64,000 nucleotides of DNA from an uncultured Acidobacteriota bacterium (GTDB lineage Bacteria; Acidobacteriota; UBA6911), in contig CAWHCF010000014.1 of assembly GCA_963827655.1 (NCBI GenBank), positions 86,424 to 150,423 of the forward strand, written 5' to 3'. The notes under the pieces were generated by a model, which saw only the letters and a list, made by a program, of their open reading frames with translations, did no database searches and was not told the origin of the DNA. Positions within the stretch are counted from its first letter, which is position 1; every line of letters starts with the position of its first letter. The position numbers and the translations under genes were made by a program. Shown here in pieces: positions 4,739 to 47,000 of the stretch.

Positions 4739-7417
4739 ATGAAACGCGTTTCTAAATTGCGCCCAGCGGCGTTGTTCCTGCTCGCCGGCCTGGCTGTTGC
4801 CGGCTCATTCTCGCGGGCGGGACATCGCAATGCCTATCCCTTGCCCGAAGAGCGGGGAACAGCCGGTATTCTGAACGCGCTCGAGAAGCTGCCGGTCTTC
4901 GTACGCGTGCTTCACACTACGGCTCACCCCGACGATGAGAGCGCCGGAACTCTAACCTGGCTGGCTCGCAGGATGCACGCCCGAACCGCCCTTTTCTCTC
5001 TCACCCGGGGAGACGGCGGGCAGAATGTGCTGGGCGACGAGAAATACGAAGCCATGGGACTCGTACGCACCGGAGAGCTTCTGGAAGCTTGCCGGGTCTA
5101 CGGAGTTGAAACTTACTTCTCGACGGTTTTCGAGTTCGGATTCTCGAAGAGCGCCCAGGAAACACTCAGAGTCTGGGGACATGAAGCCACGCTGGAAGAA
5201 GTGGTCCGGTTCATACGCACCTGGAAGCCGGCGATTGTCATTTCGAAATGGCTAGGGAATTCGAGGGACGGCCACGGACACCATCAGGCGGCCGGATTGC
5301 TGACCGTCGAGGCTTTTCGGGCGGCGGGAGATCCCTCGAAATTTCCCGGCCATCTCCAGCAAGGCCTCCGCGCCTGGCAGCCGAAGAAACTCTACCTGCC
5401 TGCCCGCGATGATAGCGCGGGGGGGAACGGTCAGGGAACGCCGCCGGACGGCACGATACGGATCAATGTCGGGGAGTATGATCCGCTCCTCGGCCGCTCC
5501 TATCGCGAAATCGGCTCCGAAGGATACAGCAAGCATCGCTCGCAGGGGAACGGCGCAAGGTTTTCATTGCCCGGCCGCGGCTTCGATAACTTCAAACTGG
5601 CGGATTCGACCCTTGGGACCGGAGGTAAAGAGGACGGTTTCTTCGATTCGATCGACACGGCCCTCACGTCCATTGCCGGATTGGCAGGACCGGATTCAGC
5701 CGCTGTCCCCTGGCTGGCTCAGGATCTGGCTGCCGCAAAATCAGCAGCGGAGTCTTGTGTACGAGCCTTTCGTCCCCGCGAACCAGAAGCCAGCGCCGAA
5801 CAGGCGGTGCGGGGGCTCGCCATTCTCACCGGCCTGATCCAGAAGGTGGAAAGCTCCGACCTGCCGCGCCCCACAAAGGAGCTGCTGCACGACGCCCTCA
5901 CCGAAAAACGGACCGATTTCCAGGACGCCGTGAACGCCGCTCTCGGGGTTTATATCACTGCTGGAACCGAAGAACCGACCGCAGTGCCCGGACAGGAGAT
6001 CGCGGTGACCGCTCAGGTCTTCAACCGCGGAGCCAGGACCATCGACCTGAAACGCGTCACCCTGTGGACTCCCGACGGTTGGATCTCTTCGTTGCCGGCC
6101 GGGGCGCCGCTGGGAAAAGTTGCACCCGGAGAAAGCGTGTCGTTCAAACATAATGTCCAGATACCTCCTGGCGCGAAAATTACCGAGCCGTTCTGGTATC
6201 GCGAAAACAAAAACGACTCACGGTACAAAACGCATCCGACTCGGAACGTCTTCGCTCCCTTCGATCCGCCCGAAATCACGGCTCAGGCAACCTATCGTTA
6301 CAATGAAACTGAAGTATCGATATCGGCACCGGCGCGCGCTCAGGCAGGCGATCCGATCCGAGGCGTAGATTTCGTGGACTTCCAGGTTGTGCCGGCGCTC
6401 TCGGTAGCGCTGAACCCCGATCTGGTTGTCATCCCGGCGGCAATCGAAAATCAAACTCGCGAATTTCAGGTGTCGGTCGTGAGCAATGGGAAGTCGCCCC
6501 TCCAGGGACAGGTTGAGATTGTTGCGCCTCAAGGATGGAAGGTCGAGCCCGTCTCCGCGCCGTTTTCCCTCTCTCGCAAAGAAGAGTCATTCACCGTGCG
6601 CTTTAATCTCCGCATTCCCCCGGGCGGCAGCGAAGGTAATCACTCCGTGGATGCCATCGCCAGGACGGCAAACCAGGAGTTCCGCCGCGGGTATCGCGTC
6701 ATATCCTATCCCGAGAACTGGACGCGTCACCTCTACTCGCCGGCGCGCGCAGAGGTCAAGATCTTCGATGTGAAAGTCGCTCCCAACCTCACGGCCGGCT
6801 ACATCGTGGGGGCAGGCGACGAGGTGCCGGCATCTCTCCAGCAACTTGGAGTGAAGGTCGAAATGCTCTCGGCGAAGGATCTTGCTTTCGGCGAACTCAG
6901 CCGGTTCAGCGCGATCGTAACCGGCATCCGCGCCTACAACATCAATGAAGATTTGAGGGCCAATAACCAGCGGTTGATCAAGTACGTCGAACAAGGCGGA
7001 ATCCTCATCGTCCAGTACAACACGCCCATGGGGCGCGGGAATTCGCCGTTTCCCTATGGCCCATTTCCGATGAGCAGTTCAGCCGGCGATCGTATTACGG
7101 TCGAGGATTCGCCAGTGAAAATTCTCGAGCCGCAGCATCCGATCCTGTCGGTTCCCAACAAGATTACCATGGCGGATTTCGAGGGCTGGGTGCAGGAGCG
7201 AGGGCTTTATTTCATGACCCAATGGGACAGCAGGTACACGCCTCTGATCTCGGGAAATGATCCTGGGGAAAAGCCCAGTTTGGGCGGGTTCCTGGTAGCG
7301 CGCCACGGGAAGGGATACTACATCTTCACAGGTTACGCCTGGTTTCGTCAGCTGCCCGCCGGGGTGCCCGGCGCTTTCCGAATCTTTGCGAATATGCTGA
7401 GCCTGGGGAAGAATTGA
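4739..7417 (+). CDS. secreted PIG-L/LmbE-family deacetylase with NEW3-like Ig domains and a C-terminal class-I GATase-like domain
   Basis: Signal peptide; motifs AHPDDE, LTRGDGGQN, RTGEL, HGHHQ, SKHRSQG, GWVQERGLYF and FRQLPAGVPGA. Confidence 0.88.
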   Translation: MKRVSKLRPAALFLLAGLAVAGSFSRAGHRNAYPLPEERGTAGILNALEKLPVFVRVLHTTAHPDDESAGTLTWLARRMHARTALFSLTRGDGGQNVLGDEKYEAMGLVRTGELLEACRVYGVETYFSTVFEFGFSKSAQETLRVWGHEATLEEVVRFIRTWKPAIVISKWLGNSRDGHGHHQAAGLLTVEAFRAAGDPSKFPGHLQQGLRAWQPKKLYLPARDDSAGGNGQGTPPDGTIRINVGEYDPLLGRSYREIGSEGYSKHRSQGNGARFSLPGRGFDNFKLADSTLGTGGKEDGFFDSIDTALTSIAGLAGPDSAAVPWLAQDLAAAKSAAESCVRAFRPREPEASAEQAVRGLAILTGLIQKVESSDLPRPTKELLHDALTEKRTDFQDAVNAALGVYITAGTEEPTAVPGQEIAVTAQVFNRGARTIDLKRVTLWTPDGWISSLPAGAPLGKVAPGESVSFKHNVQIPPGAKITEPFWYRENKNDSRYKTHPTRNVFAPFDPPEITAQATYRYNETEVSISAPARAQAGDPIRGVDFVDFQVVPALSVALNPDLVVIPAAIENQTREFQVSVVSNGKSPLQGQVEIVAPQGWKVEPVSAPFSLSRKEESFTVRFNLRIPPGGSEGNHSVDAIARTANQEFRRGYRVISYPENWTRHLYSPARAEVKIFDVKVAPNLTAGYIVGAGDEVPASLQQLGVKVEMLSAKDLAFGELSRFSAIVTGIRAYNINEDLRANNQRLIKYVEQGGILIVQYNTPMGRGNSPFPYGPFPMSSSAGDRITVEDSPVKILEPQHPILSVPNKITMADFEGWVQERGLYFMTQWDSRYTPLISGNDPGEKPSLGGFLVARHGKGYYIFTGYAWFRQLPAGVPGAFRIFANMLSLGKN

Positions 7418-7599: not shown

Positions 7600-8853
7600 A
7601 TGCTGACACCCATCTCTCGCCGCGGGTTCCTCGCCGCTCTAGCGCAGGCGACTGCTCCTGATATCCGGCGCGAAGTTTTTCTGGCTTCACCCGCCCAAGG
7701 GACCGCGGTCATGGCCTATGCCTTCTATTCGCGGCCGCGCGGCGGAGACATGATCTCGATCGAGCAACGCTGGACGCGCTCGGATACGGTCGACATCGCC
7801 TACATCCGTCGCTCGCGCGACCACGGGCGCACGTGGAGCAGACCGACCGCGATACGCACAGGCGAGCGCCGCCCGGAAGGGATGCTGCGACGCCATCCCC
7901 GTTACGGCTTCGTCGATGCCCGCACGGGCCTCTATCTCGAATTTTGGATCGAGGGGGTGCTGCCTACAGACGATCCGCTCGAGGGTCTGCGCAACTGGAA
8001 TATCTATTACCGGGTTTCCCGCGACGGCGGCCGCACGTTCGGTCCCTCCTGTCAGGTCATTCATGCGGGCGCGGAATTCAATGAGCGCCATCCGCTGCCT
8101 GGCGTGTGGACGGGCAGGAACGCCGCGATGCTCGGCGACATGGCCTGTGTGCCCGTGGCGACCCCCGATGGCCGCATCCTGCTTCCGGTCGAGATCTCAC
8201 CGCTCGGAGCCGACGGCAAGCTTTACAACCCGGCCGGCGGATACACCTATACAGACGCTGCTGTTGTCGGTGGACGCTGGCGGGGCGAGCGCCTCGAATG
8301 GGAAATGTCCGACGTGATCAAAGGCGATCCTGCGCGTTCGACACGCGGCATGGTTGAGCCCACGATCGAGTTTCTCGCCGACGGACGCTTGCTAATGGTG
8401 CTGCGTGGTTCGAACGACCGGCGCCCGGAGCTACCGAGCTACCGCTGGATTTCTTTTTCTTCCGACGGCGGCCGCCGCTGGACAACACCGGAGCCGTGGA
8501 CCTACGACCGGGGCGAGGCGTTTTTCAGCCCCAGCGCCTGCTCACAGTTGCTGCGCCACTCGTCGGGACGCCTCTTTTGGCTGGGCAACATCACCGCGGA
8601 GAATCCGCGCGGCAATCGCCCGCGTTTTCCCTTCGTGATCGGGGAAGTCGACCGGCGCTCAGGCCTGCTGATGCGCTCGAGCGTGCGGACAGTCGACACA
8701 CTGGCGCCTGGAGAAGATCCTGTCCTGTCGTTATCGAATTTCTACGCGCGTGAAGATCGTCGGACACGAGAGATCGCAGTCCACATGACGCGCTTGTTTG
8801 CAAAGCCGGAGGGATGGGCCGGTGACGCATACCTGTATCGGATACGGGTGTGA
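7600..8853 (+). CDS. Tat-exported sialidase-like (BNR/Asp-box beta-propeller) protein
   Basis: SRRGFL twin-arginine motif; Asp-boxes SRDHGRTW, SRDGGRTF and SSDGGRRW. Confidence 0.8.
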   Translation: MLTPISRRGFLAALAQATAPDIRREVFLASPAQGTAVMAYAFYSRPRGGDMISIEQRWTRSDTVDIAYIRRSRDHGRTWSRPTAIRTGERRPEGMLRRHPRYGFVDARTGLYLEFWIEGVLPTDDPLEGLRNWNIYYRVSRDGGRTFGPSCQVIHAGAEFNERHPLPGVWTGRNAAMLGDMACVPVATPDGRILLPVEISPLGADGKLYNPAGGYTYTDAAVVGGRWRGERLEWEMSDVIKGDPARSTRGMVEPTIEFLADGRLLMVLRGSNDRRPELPSYRWISFSSDGGRRWTTPEPWTYDRGEAFFSPSACSQLLRHSSGRLFWLGNITAENPRGNRPRFPFVIGEVDRRSGLLMRSSVRTVDTLAPGEDPVLSLSNFYAREDRRTREIAVHMTRLFAKPEGWAGDAYLYRIRV

Positions 8854-8867
8854 GCCCAGACGCGGAC

Positions 8868-8920
8868 TTTTGGAGTGCCTCAGCTTGCTGCCGCTTTGAC
8901 TTGGCGAAGCTTGCTTCGCC
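8868..8920. repeat. REP-like element (TTTGGAGTGC... family)
   Basis: TTTGGAGTGCCTCAGCTTGCTGCCGCTTT plus the palindrome GGCGAAGCTTGCTTCGCC. A degenerate reverse half (GCACTCCAAA) lies near 56377-56403. Confidence 0.55.
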
Positions 8921-9151
8921 AAACGGCTACGGAATTCGTCCTGAACAGCCAGGGAGTCGCAGACCCTGATGACCCCATCATGAAAATGCGTATCCGATAG
9001 GGCTGGAACATCCTCAGGAGAGCTGGGAACAGGGCAGGAGAAACCATCGGCCGCGGTGGACCTCCTGCAGCCGAGGATCAACGTTGCAAGAACCTACCCC
9101 AAAGTCTTGGCCGGATGCCTATGCGTCACATGCTTTCTTGGTTTCGCGGCC

Positions 9152-31347: not shown

Positions 31348-32595
31348 ATGCCGCGCACGAACTCAATCGAGATCATTCGCAAAACGCTGGATCTTGCCGG
31401 CCACGAGCTGCAGATCCTGCATCAGATCAGCCAGACCATAAGCTGCAGCCTTGACCCGGACCAGATCCTGCGGCACATCATCGACCTGGTGGTCGACGTC
31501 ACGCGCGGAGATTCCTGCCTCCTGTACCTGCTCGACGAGACCGAACAGTCACTCATCCTGAGGGCTTCCAAGAACCCTCACCCCCGGATCATTGGCAACA
31601 TCTCGCTCAAGGTCGGCGAGGGGATCACCGGTTGGGTGGCGCGTGAGGCCAAACCGGTGGCGATTCCCAGGCATGCGAGCAAGGATGCCCGCTTCAAGTT
31701 CTTTCATAATCTGCCGGAGGACCGTTACGAAGCCTTTCTCTCGGTTCCCATCATCGCACCCACCGATCGCATGATCGGAGTCATCAACGTGCAGCATCGG
31801 CGGGCGCATCGCCACACCGAACAGGAAATAACCCTCCTGTCGATAATCGGACATCAGGTCGGAGGGGCAATCGAAAATGCCCGCCTCTATCAGGAGACGA
31901 GCCGCCGGGCGCAGCATCTTTCGGCGCTGGCGCAGGTCGGGCAGATCATCGTCTCCGGGAAATACCTCGAGGAAATGCTGCAGCTCATCGTCAGCTTCGT
32001 GACCGAAATGATGCCGGCCCGCGTCTGCTCGATCATGCTGGTGGATCGGAAAAAGAACGAACTGGTGCTGAAGGCGGCAAAGTGCTCCAGCCAGGAGTAC
32101 TGGCAGCGACCCAACCTGAAGATCGGACGGAGTCTTATCAGCCGGGTCGTCAAAGAAAAACGGCCGCTGATTGTCCGCGACGTAACCCATGAGGTCGAGT
32201 ATCGCTATCCGGAGCTAGCCAAAAGGGAAGGTGTGCGCTCTCTCCTGTCGGTCCCGATGATCGTCAAGGACCATGTCATCGGCGTGATCAATATTTATGC
32301 CGCCGAGGAACGCGAGTTCTCCGATGAGGAAGTCCGCCTGCTCTCGACCGTGGCCGACCAGGCAGCCCTGGCAATCGAAAACACGAAGTTGATGGTGGAG
32401 GCGCAGGAGAGCCAGGAAGCTCTTCATGCGCGCAAGCTGGTCGACCGGGCCAAGAGCATCCTGCAACGCCAGGCGCAGCTTTCTGAGGACGAGGCTTACC
32501 GGCGGCTCCAGGAACAGAGCATGCGCACACGGCGCTCGATGCGGGAGATTGCCGAAGCCGTCATTCTCGCCCACGAAATGCAGACCAACCGCTAG
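31348..32595 (+). CDS. GAF-GAF-ANTAR RNA-binding antiterminator
   Basis: Two GAF repeats (GEGITGWVA...FLSVPI...IGVINV; LLSVPM...VIGVINI). C-terminal ANTAR RKLVDRAKSIL...SEDEAYRRLQEQSM...MREIAEAVI. Confidence 0.92.
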   Translation: MPRTNSIEIIRKTLDLAGHELQILHQISQTISCSLDPDQILRHIIDLVVDVTRGDSCLLYLLDETEQSLILRASKNPHPRIIGNISLKVGEGITGWVAREAKPVAIPRHASKDARFKFFHNLPEDRYEAFLSVPIIAPTDRMIGVINVQHRRAHRHTEQEITLLSIIGHQVGGAIENARLYQETSRRAQHLSALAQVGQIIVSGKYLEEMLQLIVSFVTEMMPARVCSIMLVDRKKNELVLKAAKCSSQEYWQRPNLKIGRSLISRVVKEKRPLIVRDVTHEVEYRYPELAKREGVRSLLSVPMIVKDHVIGVINIYAAEEREFSDEEVRLLSTVADQAALAIENTKLMVEAQESQEALHARKLVDRAKSILQRQAQLSEDEAYRRLQEQSMRTRRSMREIAEAVILAHEMQTNR

Positions 32596-35427: not shown

Positions 35428-35654
35428 GGACCGCCTCTCTTCTGAAGAGGCAGGGCGGATACTCGGACGAGCCTTGCAGCTTCAAGCGCGGATCGGGTAT
35501 GTGATAGGATTCCCGTCACGAGAAACTGGCCCTGCCAGTTGATCGCCTAGAGACGAGGGGGAAGGCCGACCAGACACTCTCCCTCGCCTCACCTCAACGC
35601 CATCAGGCCATTACCTGAGATCGCCTGCCTTCTCGGGACTGGAGACGACAGGGC

Positions 35655-35730
35655 AAAAAAAAACGTCTGCAAGCCGAGAGATCTCCTCTTCGGCTTGAAG
35701 ACGTCGTCGTCAGAATATGACTTCGGTGTC
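35655..35730 (-). promoter_or_regulatory. ANTAR dual-hairpin attenuator, module 2
   Basis: Minus strand: GAC-ACCGAA-GUC, a 7-nt linker, then GAC-GACGAC-GUC overlapping the terminator ACGUCUUCAAGCCGA...UCGGCUUGCAGACGU plus U-tract. Confidence 0.82.
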
Positions 35731-35732
35731 GT

Positions 35733-35810
35733 AAAAGAAAAAAGTCTTCAAACCCGGCTCGGGGCTCGAAGACTTCGTCGTCTCTCCGTCAGCGATACGT
35801 CCTTGTATCG
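35733..35810 (-). promoter_or_regulatory. ANTAR dual-hairpin attenuator, module 1
   Basis: Minus strand: CGAUAC-AAGGAC-GUAUCG, a linker, then AGAC-GACGAA-GUCU overlapping the terminator AAGUCUUCGAGCCC...GGGUUUGAAGACUU-UUUUCUUUU. Confidence 0.85.
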
Positions 35811-35819
35811 TTGGCGCAT

Positions 35820-35848
35820 CTTTTAAGCTCTATCGCGCCGGGAGTCAA
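35820..35848 (-). promoter_or_regulatory. sigma70-type promoter of the porin leader
   Basis: TTGACT-N17-TAAAAG immediately upstream of the first ANTAR hairpin. Confidence 0.6.
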
Positions 35849-35883: not shown

Positions 35884-38400
35884 CTATCGGAGGGTCACGA
35901 AGAAAGGGCTTCCCCAAGCCATCTCGGGATCCCGCTCAGGCGCCTCGACATCCTTCTGAATGACCCGGACGTAATAGTAATGTTTTCCCGAAGGCGCTTC
36001 CGTATCCTGGTAGCTTCCGCGAAATTCCCTGCCCTTCCCCGGCACCGTGTAGACCACTTTGCCATCGCGCACCAGGTCGACGCGCACGAGATCGTTGCGC
36101 GCCCGCACAAAAATCTTCAGGCTCGGCTTCGCCGTCAGCTCGAATTCCTCTCCCATCGCGTGGTCGTTCATCGAGGCATCCAGAATAATGTCGTCGGAAG
36201 CGGCAAAGGTCCGTCGTGCCAGCATCGCGTCGATGATTCCGCCGCGCGTCGCTTCTTTCACGTAGACACAGGCGTAGGAATTATGCGTGGAGAAGTGATC
36301 CGAGCTCGCGATGAACCCGTATCGATATCCTTTGTTGAGGGCGTCCTGGGCGAAGGTTCCCGACTCTTTCAGCTGCGACTGTCCCCGTTTTTCACCCTGA
36401 ACGGCTTCAGCCGTTTCGTACGAGCTGCGCGCCCCCTGATAGATTTCAAGCACCGGTTCGAACGCCGGATTCTCCCAATCCCAGCGGCCGATCGACTGCG
36501 TGGTTTCGGCGAATGTGTGCGGGATGATTACAGCTTTTTGCGCCGAACCATTTCTGAGTACGCCGCGCATCCACTCCCACAAGCGCTCCGGCAGATTATC
36601 CTCCTTCACCCGCTCGCGATCCACCAGGCGCAACGGCGCGCCGCGCCGGAGAAAAACGATGTTGCGATGACCGCTCGGCGTCGCGAGGGAATGCTCGTAC
36701 GCATACATGCCGTTGAAGGCCGGAGGATTCGAAAACATGTCCGCAGCCTTTTGAGTCCACCACCATTGATAGTCCCTCAGTCCGTCGGGCCAGCGGCCCC
36801 CGGTCGCCTGGTTATGATCGGTGGTACCGAGAAAATCCAGCTCGGCGGCGTCGAGGGCGTACCGGTAGGTGTCAAGAATTGATCCGTCGACGCCATTGTG
36901 TCCGCGAATGTCGGTATGCCGGTGAAGATCGCCATACAGGAGCTGGTAGCGCTGCCCCCCTATGTTAGTACTGTAGCGCGAGCGCGGCACGGCGGCAGGG
37001 CGCTCCTTTTCCGGCACGACGGTCTGAAGCGCGGGGCCAGGCGCCGCCGGGCCAGGCGGAAGCGACGCACTGTAGATCCGATAGGTGCGCGCTTTTTCCG
37101 ATGAGGGAGATTGCTGAGGTTGGTCGCGGCCATCGCTGGAATAGACTACCTGAACCGTGCCGTCTTTCCCCAGCGCGACCGCCGCGCGCTGGGAGTTCTG
37201 GCCCGCGCTGTTTTGGAGCTGAGCCGGAGCCGTCCAGCCATTTCCATTCCAGCGAGTGGCGTAGAAGTGGTAGATCTCGCTGGGTGCCGCGCTGGTCCAG
37301 TGGCGGAAAACCAGCACGGGCCGGTCATTCCCATCAAATGCCAGAAGCGGGAGTTCGGCGAAGCGCTCCATGCGGCCGGTCAGAACAGTCGAGACCGCGC
37401 TGGCCGGCTCCGCCAGCCCGTCACGCGAGTGAATCCGAATTCCGATCCTGCGTGACTGATGCAATCCTCCGCTTCCAGGGGCCGCAGTCTTGCTGCCTTG
37501 CGAGAAGTCCTTGCCCCAATTCTCGCCGGCAATATCGTAGACCACCCAGAGCCTGCCCTGCGAGTCGCAGGCGGCAGAGGCATGAAATTCGGCCTGGAGC
37601 GAATCGGCCACCGGCACAACCGGGCCCAGCTTTCCCCGGTCGAGGCTGCGCGCGTAGACGTTGTAATCGCCCGTCTGGTACGAATCCCAGGCGATGTAGA
37701 CCATACCGCCGGAGTCAACCGCCAGGGCCGGCTCCCAATCGTTGGCGTCGCTGGACGAGACCCGGATGTCGCTGCTCCACTGGTCCCCTTTCAGCTGGCG
37801 CGCAAGAATATCCGATTTCCCGTTTCGGAATGCCTGCCAGGCCAACGTGATCGTTCCCGCGCGATCCGCGATCAGCCTGGGATTGACATCGGACCCTGCT
37901 GCGTTCGTCAAACGCCGGGGCGTCCCGGCTTTCCCGTCAGGCTCAATCCAGGCCGCGTAAACCTCCCAGTCTTCACCGGCGCGCCCTGACCAGGCACAAA
38001 GAAGACGTTCTCCGCGGGCGGCCATGACGGGGCCGTGGTGAGCCGCATTCCCATCGTTCACGATAATCGAGGGACGACTCCGCTCCCACCTCGGGTTGCG
38101 AACGACCACCCGGTCGGAATCTCTGCCATCCCATTCCACCCACGAAGCCCAGAGCTCTCCGGCAGCCGTGGACACCAGCGATGGGAAGTCGGATTGATCC
38201 TCCGTGATCGAGACCTGACTGGACGCGATCACCGGATACTGTCTCTGTTCGGCCGCCGGGGTGGCTTGTCGTGGCTGCTGAACGGCCTCCACCTCCGCAG
38301 CCTGATCGCGCTTGATGGCACTCGAACTATTGTGCGACAGAAGCTGCCAGCCGGCACTCAGGATCAACAGCACAAAGGCGAACACGACACGTCCAAGCAT
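35884..38400 (-). CDS. secreted beta-propeller + PHP-like metallohydrolase (DUF3604/CehA-McbA-like)
   Basis: Signal peptide, repeated blade motifs, GDLHRHTD, TDHN, GHRN, EIYQG and ASSDH; paralog at 57720-60677. Confidence 0.75.
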   Translation of the reverse strand: MLGRVVFAFVLLILSAGWQLLSHNSSSAIKRDQAAEVEAVQQPRQATPAAEQRQYPVIASSQVSITEDQSDFPSLVSTAAGELWASWVEWDGRDSDRVVVRNPRWERSRPSIIVNDGNAAHHGPVMAARGERLLCAWSGRAGEDWEVYAAWIEPDGKAGTPRRLTNAAGSDVNPRLIADRAGTITLAWQAFRNGKSDILARQLKGDQWSSDIRVSSSDANDWEPALAVDSGGMVYIAWDSYQTGDYNVYARSLDRGKLGPVVPVADSLQAEFHASAACDSQGRLWVVYDIAGENWGKDFSQGSKTAAPGSGGLHQSRRIGIRIHSRDGLAEPASAVSTVLTGRMERFAELPLLAFDGNDRPVLVFRHWTSAAPSEIYHFYATRWNGNGWTAPAQLQNSAGQNSQRAAVALGKDGTVQVVYSSDGRDQPQQSPSSEKARTYRIYSASLPPGPAAPGPALQTVVPEKERPAAVPRSRYSTNIGGQRYQLLYGDLHRHTDIRGHNGVDGSILDTYRYALDAAELDFLGTTDHNQATGGRWPDGLRDYQWWWTQKAADMFSNPPAFNGMYAYEHSLATPSGHRNIVFLRRGAPLRLVDRERVKEDNLPERLWEWMRGVLRNGSAQKAVIIPHTFAETTQSIGRWDWENPAFEPVLEIYQGARSSYETAEAVQGEKRGQSQLKESGTFAQDALNKGYRYGFIASSDHFSTHNSYACVYVKEATRGGIIDAMLARRTFAASDDIILDASMNDHAMGEEFELTAKPSLKIFVRARNDLVRVDLVRDGKVVYTVPGKGREFRGSYQDTEAPSGKHYYYVRVIQKDVEAPERDPEMAWGSPFFVTLR

Positions 38401-44096: not shown

Positions 44097-47000
44097 ATGA
44101 TGGGGGATTTGCAAGCTTTCATCGGAGGCTCGCGCAGTCGCCTCTTATGGCTCAGCTTGATGAGCCTGATTCTGGCGACAGCCTTCGTTCCACAGACGAG
44201 CTACGCCCAGGTGCTGTACGGTTCAATCATCGGCAACGTGAAGGATTCCAGCGGAGGCGCGGTCCCGGGCGCCAGCGTGTCGATCACGAACAAATCGACC
44301 AACCAGACACGCGAAAGCATCACGGACGAACTGGGTAATTACAGCTTGACGACGGTCCAGACCGGAAGCTACACCATGAAGGTTTCGCTTACGGGTTTCA
44401 AAGAGTTCCTGCAGACCGACGTTCAGGTGGCCTTGAATACCGTGGCCCGCGTCGATGTTACGCTGGAGGTCGGACAGGTAGCCGAAACGGTCACGGTATC
44501 GGCTCAGGCCGTGACCCTGCAGACCGACCGGGCCGAGGTGAAATCGGAGCTGAACACGAAGGCATTGCAGGATCTGCCGGTCCCGATGGGGCGGAACTAC
44601 CAGGGCCTGTTCAAGACCCTCCCCGGCTTCAGCATGCCGGAAAACGCGCACTCGATTCCGTCGAATCCATCGCGCGCCCTGGCCTTCAACGTCAACGGAG
44701 CCAGCAGAAGCTCGAATAACATCCGCATCGACGGTGTGACCGGAACCAACGTCTGGCTGCCGCACATGACGTCCTACATTCCGGCGCTCGAATCGATCGA
44801 CGCCGTCAACGTCGTCACCAACAGCTTCGACGCCGAGCAGGGGCTCGCGGGCGGCGCCGCGGTGAACGTACAGATCAAGAGCGGAACCAACGAACTGCAC
44901 GGTTCGGCCTTCGAGTACCACAGCGACAATGCGCTCAAGGCCAGGCCGTACTTCACACCGGTCAACCAGAGAAACCCGAAGCTGGTCTACAACCAGTTCG
45001 GCGCTACCCTGGGCGGACCGATCCTGAAGGACAAGCTGTTCTACTTCGCGAGCTACGAGGGGACCTACGACCATCAGTTTGCCTCGCGCACGGTGTCGGT
45101 CCCGACGCCGGAGATGAAGCGCGGTGACTTCAGCGCCTCGCCCAACCCGATTTACGACCCGGCCACCGGCGACGCCGCGGGCGCGGGCCGAACGCCATTC
45201 CCGGGCAACATCATCCCGGCCAACCGGATCGATTCGATCGCAGCCAACATCAACGCCCGATGGCCCGATCCGAACATACCGGGGCTGGCTCCCGGCACAA
45301 TCAGCAACAACTTCTACAAGGGTGACAGCTTCTACCTCCAGCGTCACACGCTCGATACCAAGCTCAACTGGAACATCACCCCGAAGCTCGCCATGAACGG
45401 GCGCTTCTCCATCCTCGACTACTCCATGCACAACCCGGAGATCTTCGGCGATCAGCTGGGCGGCATGTTCGTGGCCGCCTATGGCGGGAATTCCGGCGAA
45501 GGCTGGGGCAAGACGTACTCGACCACCATCGGGGCAAACTACGTGGTCTCGCCGAAATTCATCGTGGACGCGAACTTCGGCTGGACCCGGATGGATACTA
45601 ATGTCGAACAGTGCTGCCTTGACGAGAACATCGGCCGCGACGTCCTCGGGATTCCGGGGACGAACGGAACGCGTCGTTTCGAGGGAGGTTGGCCGGATAT
45701 CGAGATCTCGAACTTCGCCAACATCGGCGTGAACGACAACTTCATGCCGTACTATCGCTCCGACCCGCAATGGCAGTACACGGCCAACGCGAACTGGATC
45801 AAGGGGAGCCACAACGTGCGGTTCGGGTTTGACGCCTCGCACCAGAACCTGAACCACACGCAGCCGGAGTTTGCCGGCGCCTCGTACGGGGCGCAGGGGG
45901 GCTTCGCGTTCGCCGGCGGCCCGACCCAGATCGCCGGTGGGCCCGGCGGGAACGCCTTCAACAGCTACGCGACCTTCCTGCTCGGCCTGCCGACCCAGAT
46001 GGGGCGCATCCTCCAGGTGCCGGATGTCTACTCGACCCGGACGTGGGCGCACAGCCTCTATATCCGCGACTCGTGGCAGGCTCACAGGAAGTTGACCTTC
46101 GCCATCGGCACACGCTGGGAGTATTTCCCGATCCCGACGCGTCCGGACCGCGGCCTGGAGCTCTACGACATCAACACTAACAAGATGCAGGTCTGCGGTG
46201 TCGGCTCCATCCCGGTCGACTGCGGCGTCAAGATGAGCAAGACCATGTTCGCGCCCCGCTTCGGCCTGGCCTGGCGCGTGACCGAGGACTTCGTCGTCCG
46301 AGCCGGGTACGGGATCACCAACGACCCGTACAACCTCGCTCGGCCGATGCGGACCAATCACCCGATCCTGCTCGCGCTGACCGTACCGCAACCGAACTCG
46401 CTCAGCGCGGCGGGCACGCTCCGTACCGGGATTCCGGCGATCCCCGTCCCGGACCTCGGCAACGGGATCCTCGATGTCCCGAGCAACATCGGCGTCAACT
46501 ACCTCCCCACCGAATTCAAGCGCGGCTACATCCAGTCGTGGAACCTGACGCTGCAGCACACGCTGCCGCTGGGCTTCGTCGGTCAGGCGGGCTATGTCGC
46601 CACCCGGACGATCCGCCAGCTCGGCCAGCACAACATCAACACGCAGCAGGTCGGCGGCGGGCTTGCCAGCGCGCCGCTCAACCAGAAGTTCGGTCGAGTG
46701 GGATCCACGCAGTACATCGGCCCGATCGGCGGGAGCCACTACGACTCGGCGCAGCTCACGCTCGACCGCCGCTTCGCGCACGGCTTCCAGATGAACCTGG
46801 CCTACACCTTCTCGAAGGCGATCGGCGCGGTGCGGGAGAGTGACAGCGACAACAGCCCCGCGATCCAGCTCTTCGACTACTACCACCTCAACCGCTCTCT
46901 ACTGAACATTCATCGCCCGCACAACTTCCAGCTGTCCACTATCAACGAGCTTCCGTTCGGCAGGGGGCGGAAGTGGCTCAATGACGGCGGCTTCGGCAGC

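Follow-up and report, generated by a model that had tools for sequence, protein, structure and literature searches.

Can one untranslated leader carry two complete antitermination switches that would share a single RNA-binding protein as their reader? This question is raised by positions 35655 to 35848 (minus strand) of the 64,000-nucleotide (nt) stretch of contig CAWHCF010000014.1, from an uncultured acidobacterium, that was analyzed here and is called the window below. A reading of this segment made without database searches (the sequence-only reading) had described it as a promoter followed by two tandem modules, each with two hexaloop hairpins of the kind recognized by ANTAR proteins and with an intrinsic terminator overlapping the second hairpin. 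The promoter, the four hairpins and the two terminators were recovered to the base on the minus strand, upstream of a porin gene, and the segment is very probably a transcription-attenuation leader with two serial ANTAR-type checkpoints, serving a nitrogen regulon. The case for two serial modules is built from comparative evidence: the ANTAR gene is adjacent and the only one in the genome, the RNA and the protein co-occur in the class, regulator homologues of Nitrospirales stand beside the same motif, the first hairpin covaries, and a hairpin with G at loop position 4 sits at 21 of 22 strong second terminators in metagenomes.

The features of the leader and of the surrounding genes are given in Table 1. 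Judged from the sequence and its folds, two complete sensor-plus-terminator units lie in series between one promoter-like site and one start codon. Each module consists of two adjacent stem-loops of at least 3 base pairs (bp), with linkers of 8 nt between P1 and P2 and of 4 nt between P1' and P2', and the stem of P1' extends beyond its core to 6 bp in total with one C.A mismatch. The 5' arm of terminator T1 includes the 3' arm of P2 and the last three bases of the P2 loop, that of T2 includes the 3' arm of P2' and the last two bases of its loop, and both P2 and P2' are mutually exclusive with an intrinsic terminator. Read from the sequence, all four loops have 6 nt, are closed by a C-G pair and carry G at position 4 (G4), with A at position 1 (A1) in P1 and P1' and G at that position (G1) in P2 and P2', just as the sequence-only reading had it.

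Table 1. Positions of the leader elements and of the associated genes in the window
Feature	Position	Strand	Remarks
Promoter-like site	35848-35820	minus	-35 TTGACT 35848-35843, 17-nt spacer, -10-like TAAAAG 35825-35820
P1, module 1	35810-35793	minus	6-bp stem, hexaloop AAGGAC (A1, G4), closing C-G
P2, module 1 antiterminator	35784-35769	minus	4 bp and one G.U, hexaloop GACGAA (G1, G4)
T1, intrinsic terminator	35776-35733	minus	stem 35776-35741, U-tract UUUUUUCUUUU to 35733
P1', module 2	35733-35716	minus	GAC/GUC 3-bp core, hexaloop ACCGAA (A1, G4)
P2', module 2 antiterminator	35711-35700	minus	GAC/GUC 3 bp, hexaloop GACGAC (G1, G4)
T2, intrinsic terminator	35704-35655	minus	stem 35704-35663, T9 ending at 35655
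5' untranslated region (UTR), T2 to porin ATG	35654-35428	minus	227 nt, partly conserved with the porin UTR of G007
OmpL-like beta-barrel porin (BBP2), first regulated gene	35427-34075	minus	Pfam PF07642, E 2e-90
GAF + SpoIIE/PP2C phosphatase, second gene	33928-32621	minus	Pfam
GAF-GAF-ANTAR protein, presumed regulator	31348-32595	plus	415 amino acids, convergent with the operon, about 2.8 kb away

The leader was found again by DNA search in two of 41 related genomes, namely on another contig (C25) of the genome to which the window belongs (G000) and in a related genome (G007), with 74 and 83% identity to the window leader, respectively. Both copies lie directly upstream of an Amt gene (PF00909, E 4e-128, in the case of C25). 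The promoter-like site and the two modules are present in all three leaders (alignment A1), the stem of P1 shows compensatory substitutions across them, and the P2 core GACGACGAAGUCUUC is identical in the three. The arrangement TTGACT-N17-TAAAAG also stands ahead of the C25 amt leader, the counterpart in G007 being TTGACA...TATAAA. A consensus promoter scanner made no call at 35848-35820, since the -10-like element has no T at position 6, and we have retained the label promoter-like on the grounds of conservation only.

Both terminators are strong. T1 and T2 have folding energies of -21.9 and -24.8 kcal/mol, respectively; 15 pairs were assigned to T1 by a terminator scan, and T2 was not picked up by a simple scanner because of its internal loops. 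The fold of the whole leader has a z-score of -5.8 and none of 200 shuffled sequences folded equally well. P1 (-5.5 kcal/mol) and P2 (-4.4 kcal/mol) both appear as hexaloops in the minimum free energy (MFE) structure of the nascent RNA in all three close leaders. A long-range helix between 35783-35776 and about 35648-35641, present in the MFE structure of the whole leader, has no counterpart in C25 or G007 and was put down to chance. The degenerate word ACRNNGNNGT occurs 69 times on the two strands of the window, versus 49 +/- 7 times in shuffles, and only at this leader are four same-strand copies found within 106 nt.

The genome-wide motif scan that had been proposed as a check on the sequence-only reading was carried out on the 8.18-Mb assembly. 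Its rule required a pair of R..G.. hexaloops, each closed by C-G on a stem of 3 bp or more, a linker of at most 32 nt, and a T-run whose preceding arm complements the P2 region, and it gave six matches, three of which are the two modules of the window and module 1 of the C25 leader; an earlier, stricter rule gave seven matches, two of them real. A covariance model of the modules (R1) gave good scores in this genome only for the modules it was trained on. The weak matches to R1 or to a broader model described below (R2), at E values of 0.6 or more, have no downstream terminator and add no further members to the regulon; two leaders were found in this assembly, which is 90% complete, one before the porin gene and one before amt. 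One of these weak matches (46284-46312, minus strand, E 0.6-3.9) holds GACGACGAAGUC, lies in a coding region without a terminator and is probably due to chance. No family of Rfam release 15 (4227 models) reached its gathering score between 30000 and 40000; the best scores, those of ctRNA_p42d (19.1 bits, gathering 50, E 3.8) and LOOT (18.6 bits, gathering 46.4, E 6.7), were discarded as merely fitting the terminator hairpins.

A protein of the expected kind is encoded in the same genome. The product of the 31348-32595 gene contains an ANTAR domain (PF03861, 64.1 bits for a cut-off of 27.3) and two GAF domains according to Pfam, and it is the sole PF03861 match in the whole genome. Its ANTAR domain can be aligned with those of EutV (6wsh), Rv1626 and NasR. 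Three RNA-contact residues of EutV (Tyr164, Met172 and Arg175) are conserved in the alignment with 6wsh, and two others are substituted, Asn173 by Arg and Arg177 by Ser. The structure of EutV with RNA shows Tyr164 stacking on G4 and Met172 acting as a plug in the hexaloop (PMC8934654). Among 137 genomes of the class, R1 finds matches in two, G000 and G007, and an ANTAR domain occurs in three, these two and G058, the ANTAR reading frame of which (246 amino acids) is much shorter than the protein of the window.

Relatives of the regulator were found in records titled Acidobacteria (88% identity) and Terriglobia (58%) and in seven Nitrospirae or Nitrospirales records (53-57%). At four Nitrospirales loci (L026, L027, L030, and L031), a leader lies within about 100 nt downstream of the regulator gene and consists of a TTGA...TATAAT-like promoter, two C-G-closed hexaloops (AACGAA and AAUGAC, for example) and a terminator overlapping the second of them; these leaders have a single module, and the gene that follows encodes a glutamine-dependent NAD synthetase (nadE). 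On L028 and L029 (about 7230-7340), P2 (loop AAAGGC) and the terminator are clear and no P1 hexaloop hairpin was seen; they might be ANTAR sites with one hairpin, as in the second modules of certain amt leaders. When R2 was searched in five regulator-bearing genomes, two sites outside its training set were found in two of the five (34.2 and 22.9 bits), each a single module with a terminator located upstream of a homologue of the window porin (tblastn E 1e-33 and 8e-40), which makes the porin a conserved member of the regulon across phyla. The Terriglobia genome coding for the regulator with 58% identity (G137) gave no R2 match at E values up to 1. A MAFFT alignment of the acidobacterial and Nitrospirales modules had placed the Nitrospirales P1 on the acidobacterial P2, and it was replaced by model-based alignments.

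The exact P2-T1 pattern occurs in one of 401 genomes sampled from the phylum, which is G000 itself, so that the metagenomic matches described below must come mostly from lineages outside this sample. This rarity in the phylum, together with the fact that the nearest relatives of the regulator outside its own lineage belong to the Nitrospirales, suggests that the regulator and its leaders were acquired jointly.

In metagenome contigs, at least 120 stretches match a pattern covering P2 and T1 only. The counts given here and below were taken among the matches listed, 81 of the at least 120, which lie at 80 loci and correspond to 75 distinct leaders. Among the 59 downstream open reading frames (ORFs) that were called, amt is by far the most frequent (33), followed by glnA (6), BBP2 porin (5), nadE (2), amino-acid permease (2) and a Rieske + NIR_SIR nitrite reductase-like gene (1); the remaining 10 have no assigned role in nitrogen metabolism and comprise two clusters of two and six singles, one of which is a response-regulator receiver. 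The nitrite reductase-like gene is preceded by a tandem leader resembling that of the window and having the same P1 stem (L053 2099-2212, minus strand), and the same type of leader is thus reused before different nitrogen genes in close relatives. Several R2 matches lie off the pattern (L047 1759-1799, L049 2690-2729, L074 159-193, L106 7057-7094, and L040 12251-12288, the latter with duplicates in L058 and L086), and they are likely to be further ANTAR sites in or beside amt operons. On these short contigs, tblastn found the regulator at one of the 80 loci (L072, where it stands beside the motif) and the PP2C protein at none.

Since P1 lies outside the search pattern, it could be assessed independently, with no filter on the loop sequence and with stretches 300 nt downstream as controls. 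A hexaloop hairpin of at least 4 bp is present upstream of P2 in 63 of 73 distinct leaders; position 4 of its loop is G in 53 of these 63, versus 8 of 35 control hairpins, and the top of the stem is AC/GU in 42. In an alignment of 84 R2 matches (71 distinct rows), which was fitted to the model and therefore leans towards it, 97.7% of the cells of the P1 stem pair, versus 22-51% when the arms are slid, with 61 double-change cells, and none of 500 shuffles reached these values. On this comparative evidence, P1 is real.

Loop position 1 deserves separate consideration, as it bears on the assignment to a known class. The ANTAR-target RNA class, a dual-hexaloop antiterminator, is defined with A1 and G4 (PMC3369931). 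The statement in the sequence-only reading that the leader matches this target stands as far as G4, the loop size read from the sequence and the overlap with a terminator are concerned; it falls short at position 1, where P2 and P2' depart from the published A1 rule. We have therefore filed the leader as a variant and not as a canonical member of the class. The additional suggestion that G1 in P2 might define a variant specificity was not borne out. Position 1 is simply a purine in P1, P2, and P2' alike throughout the family of window-type leaders: of the 63 metagenomic P1 loops, 38 have A there, 21 have G and four have another base; the P2' loops of the sister leaders read AACGAC and AACGGA, which means that the G1 of P2' in the window is not fixed; and G1 recurs in P2 of the Nitrospirales porin leaders, the loops of which are GACGAA and GAUGAA. 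The A1 of the EutV target makes no specific contact with the protein and may serve the fold of the RNA (PMC8934654). G1 is, as far as sequences can tell, a family-wide relaxation of the A1 rule.

The tandem design itself was examined in those 70 distinct leaders whose downstream sequence extends to 120 nt or more, again among the matches listed. A second hairpin with a T-run follows about 50-80 nt past the first in 26 of them, and it is weak in three of these. Sorted by downstream gene, it is present in 19 of 27 leaders before amt and in both leaders before nadE, in none of those before porin (0/5), glnA (0/6) or permease (0/2) genes, and in 5 of the 28 with another ORF or none called. In the region of the strong second terminators (-15 kcal/mol or stronger, n = 22), which lies outside the search pattern and was inspected without any loop filter, a hairpin of the form (G)GAC-NNNGNN-GUC(C) with its 3' arm entering the 5' arm of T2 was found in 21 cases, always with G4 and with either A1 (17) or G1 (4). 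About half of these leaders also show a hexaloop hairpin of the P1' type, the rest having one hairpin only. In 12 second modules aligned with that of the window (A7, from which L060, L085a, and L079 were omitted), both P1' and P2' have G4 in all 12 loops, and 88.7% of the P1' cells pair, versus 17-42% when slid, with two pairs showing double changes.

We propose the following working scheme. Transcription would start constitutively at the sigma-70-like promoter near 35848-35820. When no active regulator is present, the nascent RNA would form T1 and any read-through RNA would form T2, keeping the operon of the porin and GAF-PP2C genes off. An active dimeric GAF-GAF-ANTAR protein would bind the P1 + P2 hexaloop pair and keep the weak P2 hairpin closed, making the 5' arm of T1 unavailable, and a second binding event at P1' + P2' would act likewise at T2. 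Expression would thus need two successive antitermination events, the leaks of the two modules would multiply to give the basal leak, and active regulator would elicit a steeper response than with a single module. It is reasonable to expect very low leak and a sharper response from serial attenuators, as the sequence-only reading had done, since the promoter looks constitutive, no other control is visible and two terminators must be passed; the tandem arrangement probably keeps nitrogen-scavenging genes tightly off until nitrogen is scarce. The data themselves show how the leader is built, how its hairpins overlap the terminators, how far it is conserved and covaries, that it co-occurs with the regulator, and which genes make up the regulon; that the protein binds and antiterminates at both sites, what its ligand is and what is gained from two modules we infer from them.

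The signal is probably nitrogen status, by analogy with known sensors and in view of the predicted regulon (amt, glnA, porin, glutamine-dependent nadE, permease, and nitrite reductase), which centers on ammonium and glutamine metabolism. GAF1 is closest to the GAF domain of PtsP/EI-Ntr (3ci6, E 6e-20; NF008283, 1.8e-37) and GAF2 to that of NifA (TIGR01817, 2.9e-31). GAF domains of PtsP and NifA serve in the sensing of glutamine and 2-oxoglutarate. Nitrogen limitation is the most likely signal, which the two GAF domains would perceive with 2-oxoglutarate and/or glutamine as ligands by analogy.

A number of observations weigh against two functional checkpoints or against parts of this scheme. 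P1' has an energy of -2.2 kcal/mol and P2', as a hexaloop, one of -0.7 kcal/mol, which makes module 2 thermodynamically marginal; a tetraloop form of P2' closed by a G1-C6 pair reaches -2.5 kcal/mol. Neither hexaloop appears in the MFE structure, where an alternative hairpin is preferred. Since all the hairpins use GAC/GUC, pairing is possible between the 3' arm of P1' and the 5' arm of P2', and this is the fold that the nascent RNA of module 2 favors (-11.5 kcal/mol, versus -3.0 for P1' + P2'), a preference shared by G007 and C25. The loop of P1' is a hexaloop in G007 (ACCGGA) and a pentaloop in C25, and the covariation of P1' receives modest support, 20 of 500 shuffles reaching its pairing and 42 of 500 its covariation score. 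About a third of the tandem leaders have a single hexaloop hairpin in their second module, so that the second checkpoint may not always be a canonical dual site, and as the five metagenomic porin leaders have a single module, tandem control of a porin, as in the window, is an exception. To this are added the G1 of P2 and P2' discussed above, a ligand assignment that draws on domain similarity to PtsP and NifA, and the fact that binding, termination and read-through are all deduced from sequence. The dual-hexaloop form of module 2 would exist only while held by the protein, which would suit an antiterminator that loses by default.

RNA libraries give a partial view of the transcript. Four soil metatranscriptome runs yielded low-depth contigs of close relatives, 90-99% identical to the window. 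One contig of 312 nt covers 35472-35763 with five mismatches and two gaps and thus spans T2; it comes from a relative, may be due to DNA carry-over and, like any contig, cannot show 3' ends, which also counts against using it in favor of the scheme. No RNA-library contig extends upstream of 35801, which is a weak hint for the promoter; several other parts are uncovered as well. Another RNA contig (run X16, record 4) matches 35714-35801, from P1 through P1', and continues with 102 nt unlike the window and A-rich in the RNA sense; it might represent a variant leader, a chimeric contig or an RNA with a tail.

The weakness of the second module can be taken to mean that only module 1 is an ANTAR switch, T2 being an unregulated backstop or a decayed duplicate and P1' and P2' look-alikes that have lost binding to the protein. 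The 3-bp cores of P1' and P2', their absence from the MFE structure, the pentaloop of C25 and the weak P1' covariation fit this idea, and so does the close resemblance between P2' and P2 in the window, as expected after a recent duplication or conversion. T2 is nevertheless strong, ending in T9, and if unregulated it would block expression for good; the tandem has moreover been kept before amt in most of the metagenomic leaders listed, and the G4 of the second-module loops is as constant as described above at the strong second terminators and in A7. We consider this explanation unlikely. Another explanation, in which the leader does not answer to the ANTAR protein and works instead as a small-molecule riboswitch, through a leader peptide or through a different RNA-binding protein, with the likeness of the hexaloops being incidental, seems to us very unlikely. 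It draws some strength from the fact that the ANTAR reading is founded on sequence comparison and not on direct binding, from the two loops that are off the ANTAR consensus at position 1, and from an ATG-initiated ORF of 23 codons, which starts at 35819 (minus strand) at the edge of the -10-like element and spans P1, P2, and most of T1. This ORF is not found in the C25 or G007 leaders, and leader-peptide attenuation was rejected; the unstructured parts of the leader are too short and variable for an aptamer, no Rfam match falls below E 3.8, and the co-occurrence of RNA and ANTAR gene in the class, like the position of the motif next to regulator homologues in Nitrospirales and L072, also speaks against it.

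The main product might also be the RNA of about 80 nt ending at T1, acting as a small RNA or as a decoy, the tandem terminators serving mainly to end this RNA and the transcript of the upstream gene. In EutX/Rli55, an RNA acts as a decoy for the ANTAR regulator. Terminated RNAs would be abundant if the promoter is as constitutive as it looks, and the metallohydrolase-like gene upstream, which ends at 35884, has no terminator of its own. In the terminated RNA, however, P2 would be buried in T1 and the dual site needed by a decoy would not be displayed, and the element is always placed immediately before nitrogen-assimilation genes and on their strand, as a cis-acting leader is; the probability of this explanation is in our view very small. 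Two serial ANTAR-type checkpoints thus remain the preferred account of the leader. A broader picture, which we put forward tentatively as one that has somewhat less than an even chance of being right, is that of a previously undescribed, laterally spread nitrogen-scavenging regulon of soil bacteria, including this acidobacterium, Nitrospirales and many metagenomic lineages, in which the one-component GAF-GAF-ANTAR protein would read 2-oxoglutarate and/or glutamine directly, promoters would be constitutive, amt, glnA, nadE, a dedicated outer-membrane porin and nitrite reductase would be controlled by antitermination only, and the tandem of the amt-class leaders and of this porin leader would have evolved as a switch with near-zero leak.

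As regards the neighboring genes, no convincing terminator was found in the gap between the porin and phosphatase genes, which are probably co-transcribed. The GAF-PP2C gene is missing at the corresponding place in G007/L023. SpoIIE and STAS are listed among the domains fused to ANTAR in a review published in 2025 (PMC12591593), and such SpoIIE/ANTAR fusions hint at a functional link between phosphatase and ANTAR protein. In the long 5' UTR of the porin gene, 35583-35502 is 74% identical to the G007 porin UTR, and a strong hairpin at about 35592-35551 matches no known family. In four of the five metagenomic porin UTRs (L054, L076, L081, and L102), a hairpin resembling CACGACAAUGAYGCGUG is located past the terminator and ahead of the start codon; the window lacks this hairpin, which is a possible additional regulatory element in the mRNAs of porins. 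Related contigs (L003 1-195 and L023 at about 8747-8943) stop about 196 nt upstream of the porin ATG, where an amt-like leader would begin, and the assembly may have broken there because two loci have near-identical leaders. On the other side of the regulator gene, 31185-28129 (minus strand) encodes a protein of 1018 amino acids that has P-type ATPase domains (E1-E2 ATPase and HAD hydrolase) and, at its C-terminus, a Band 7/SPFH domain.

ANTAR antitermination is known from a few model leaders with a single module (eut, nas, and ami), and in the literature found, no targets are assigned to GAF-type ANTAR proteins, GAF-ANTAR proteins being called uncharacterised in 2012 (PMC3369931). At the present locus, a GAF-GAF-ANTAR protein would be assigned both a defined RNA site and a coherent nitrogen regulon, which extends over two phyla and includes an outer-membrane porin. 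It would also provide a case of two ANTAR checkpoints stacked in one leader, preferentially before ammonium transporters, and since nature appears to stack them in this way, the idea of a serial protein-read attenuator is directly testable. Relaxing the A1 rule to a purine at position 1 combined with a fixed AC/GU stem top should improve genome-wide searches for ANTAR sites, and the locus hints at a control of ammonium uptake in poorly studied soil phyla that does not follow the classical NtrC/sigma-54 route. No description of two serial ANTAR modules in one leader was found in the literature, of which the figures and supplementary site tables (PMC3369931, PMC8164766) may hold cases; the word "tandem" is absent from PMC12591593, PMC8164766, and PMC8934654 and occurs in PMC2995071 only in a reference title. 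The serial two-module architecture and the purine-1 loop rule are, on the sequences compared, variants of a known ANTAR kind.

The best-described relative is EutV of Enterococcus faecalis with the eutP, eutG, eutS, and eutA leaders, which have in common with the window leader the paired hairpins that by sequence have hexaloops with an essential G4, a P2 hairpin exclusive with an intrinsic terminator, and a proposed dimeric ANTAR binder whose Tyr and Met contacts are kept here (PMC3369931, PMC8934654). The systems differ in the sensor, a phosphorylated receiver in EutV and GAF-GAF in the window regulator; in the loops, A1 in eut and, in the window type, a purine at position 1 (which in P2 and P2' is G) on a fixed AC/GU stem top; in the layout, four terminators spread over the eut locus versus two complete modules in one leader; and in the regulon, ethanolamine use versus ammonium and glutamine metabolism. 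NasR/nasF of Klebsiella oxytoca and AmiR/amiE of Pseudomonas aeruginosa are one-component, non-phosphorelay ANTAR systems controlling nitrogen-source genes through leaders with two A1/G4 hexaloop hairpins before a terminator (PMC12591593, PMC3369931). Their sensing involves a NIT domain or an AmiC partner and they have a single module at a single locus, whereas in the window system the GAF domains resemble those of PtsP and NifA, and the leaders, which occur at no fewer than two loci of the genome, have two modules each. In Geobacter sulfurreducens, GnfK/GnfR is similar in that an ANTAR protein relieves premature termination in leaders including those of glnK-amtB and nif, and the conserved GnfR site, GGC-AANGGC-GCC, can be read as a hexaloop that is closed by C-G and carries A1 and G4; GnfR differs in being a response regulator under a sigma-54 cascade, and one termination signal is described per leader (PMC2995071). 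The covariance search by Ramesh et al. (2012) predicted ANTAR sites upstream of genes for amt, P-II, nitrite reductase and glnA-type proteins, with several sites per transcription unit; for Desulfotomaculum acetoxidans, 13 attenuators were noted in six transcription units (PMC3369931).

Outside the ANTAR field, the closest parallel is with leaders that carry serial regulatory units of other kinds. Tandem riboswitches and tandem T-boxes place serial units in one leader, from which lower leak and a switch-like or combinatorial output are expected. Two serial sensor-plus-terminator units in one 5' leader are also the layout of tandem attenuators, an example of which is reported for Salmonella mgtCBR (PMC3641672). 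While those systems sense metabolites, tRNA or translation through the RNA, the two units of the window leader would share one protein reader, and a laterally spread tandem-ANTAR regulon would, if true, be the first protein-read counterpart of tandem riboswitches.

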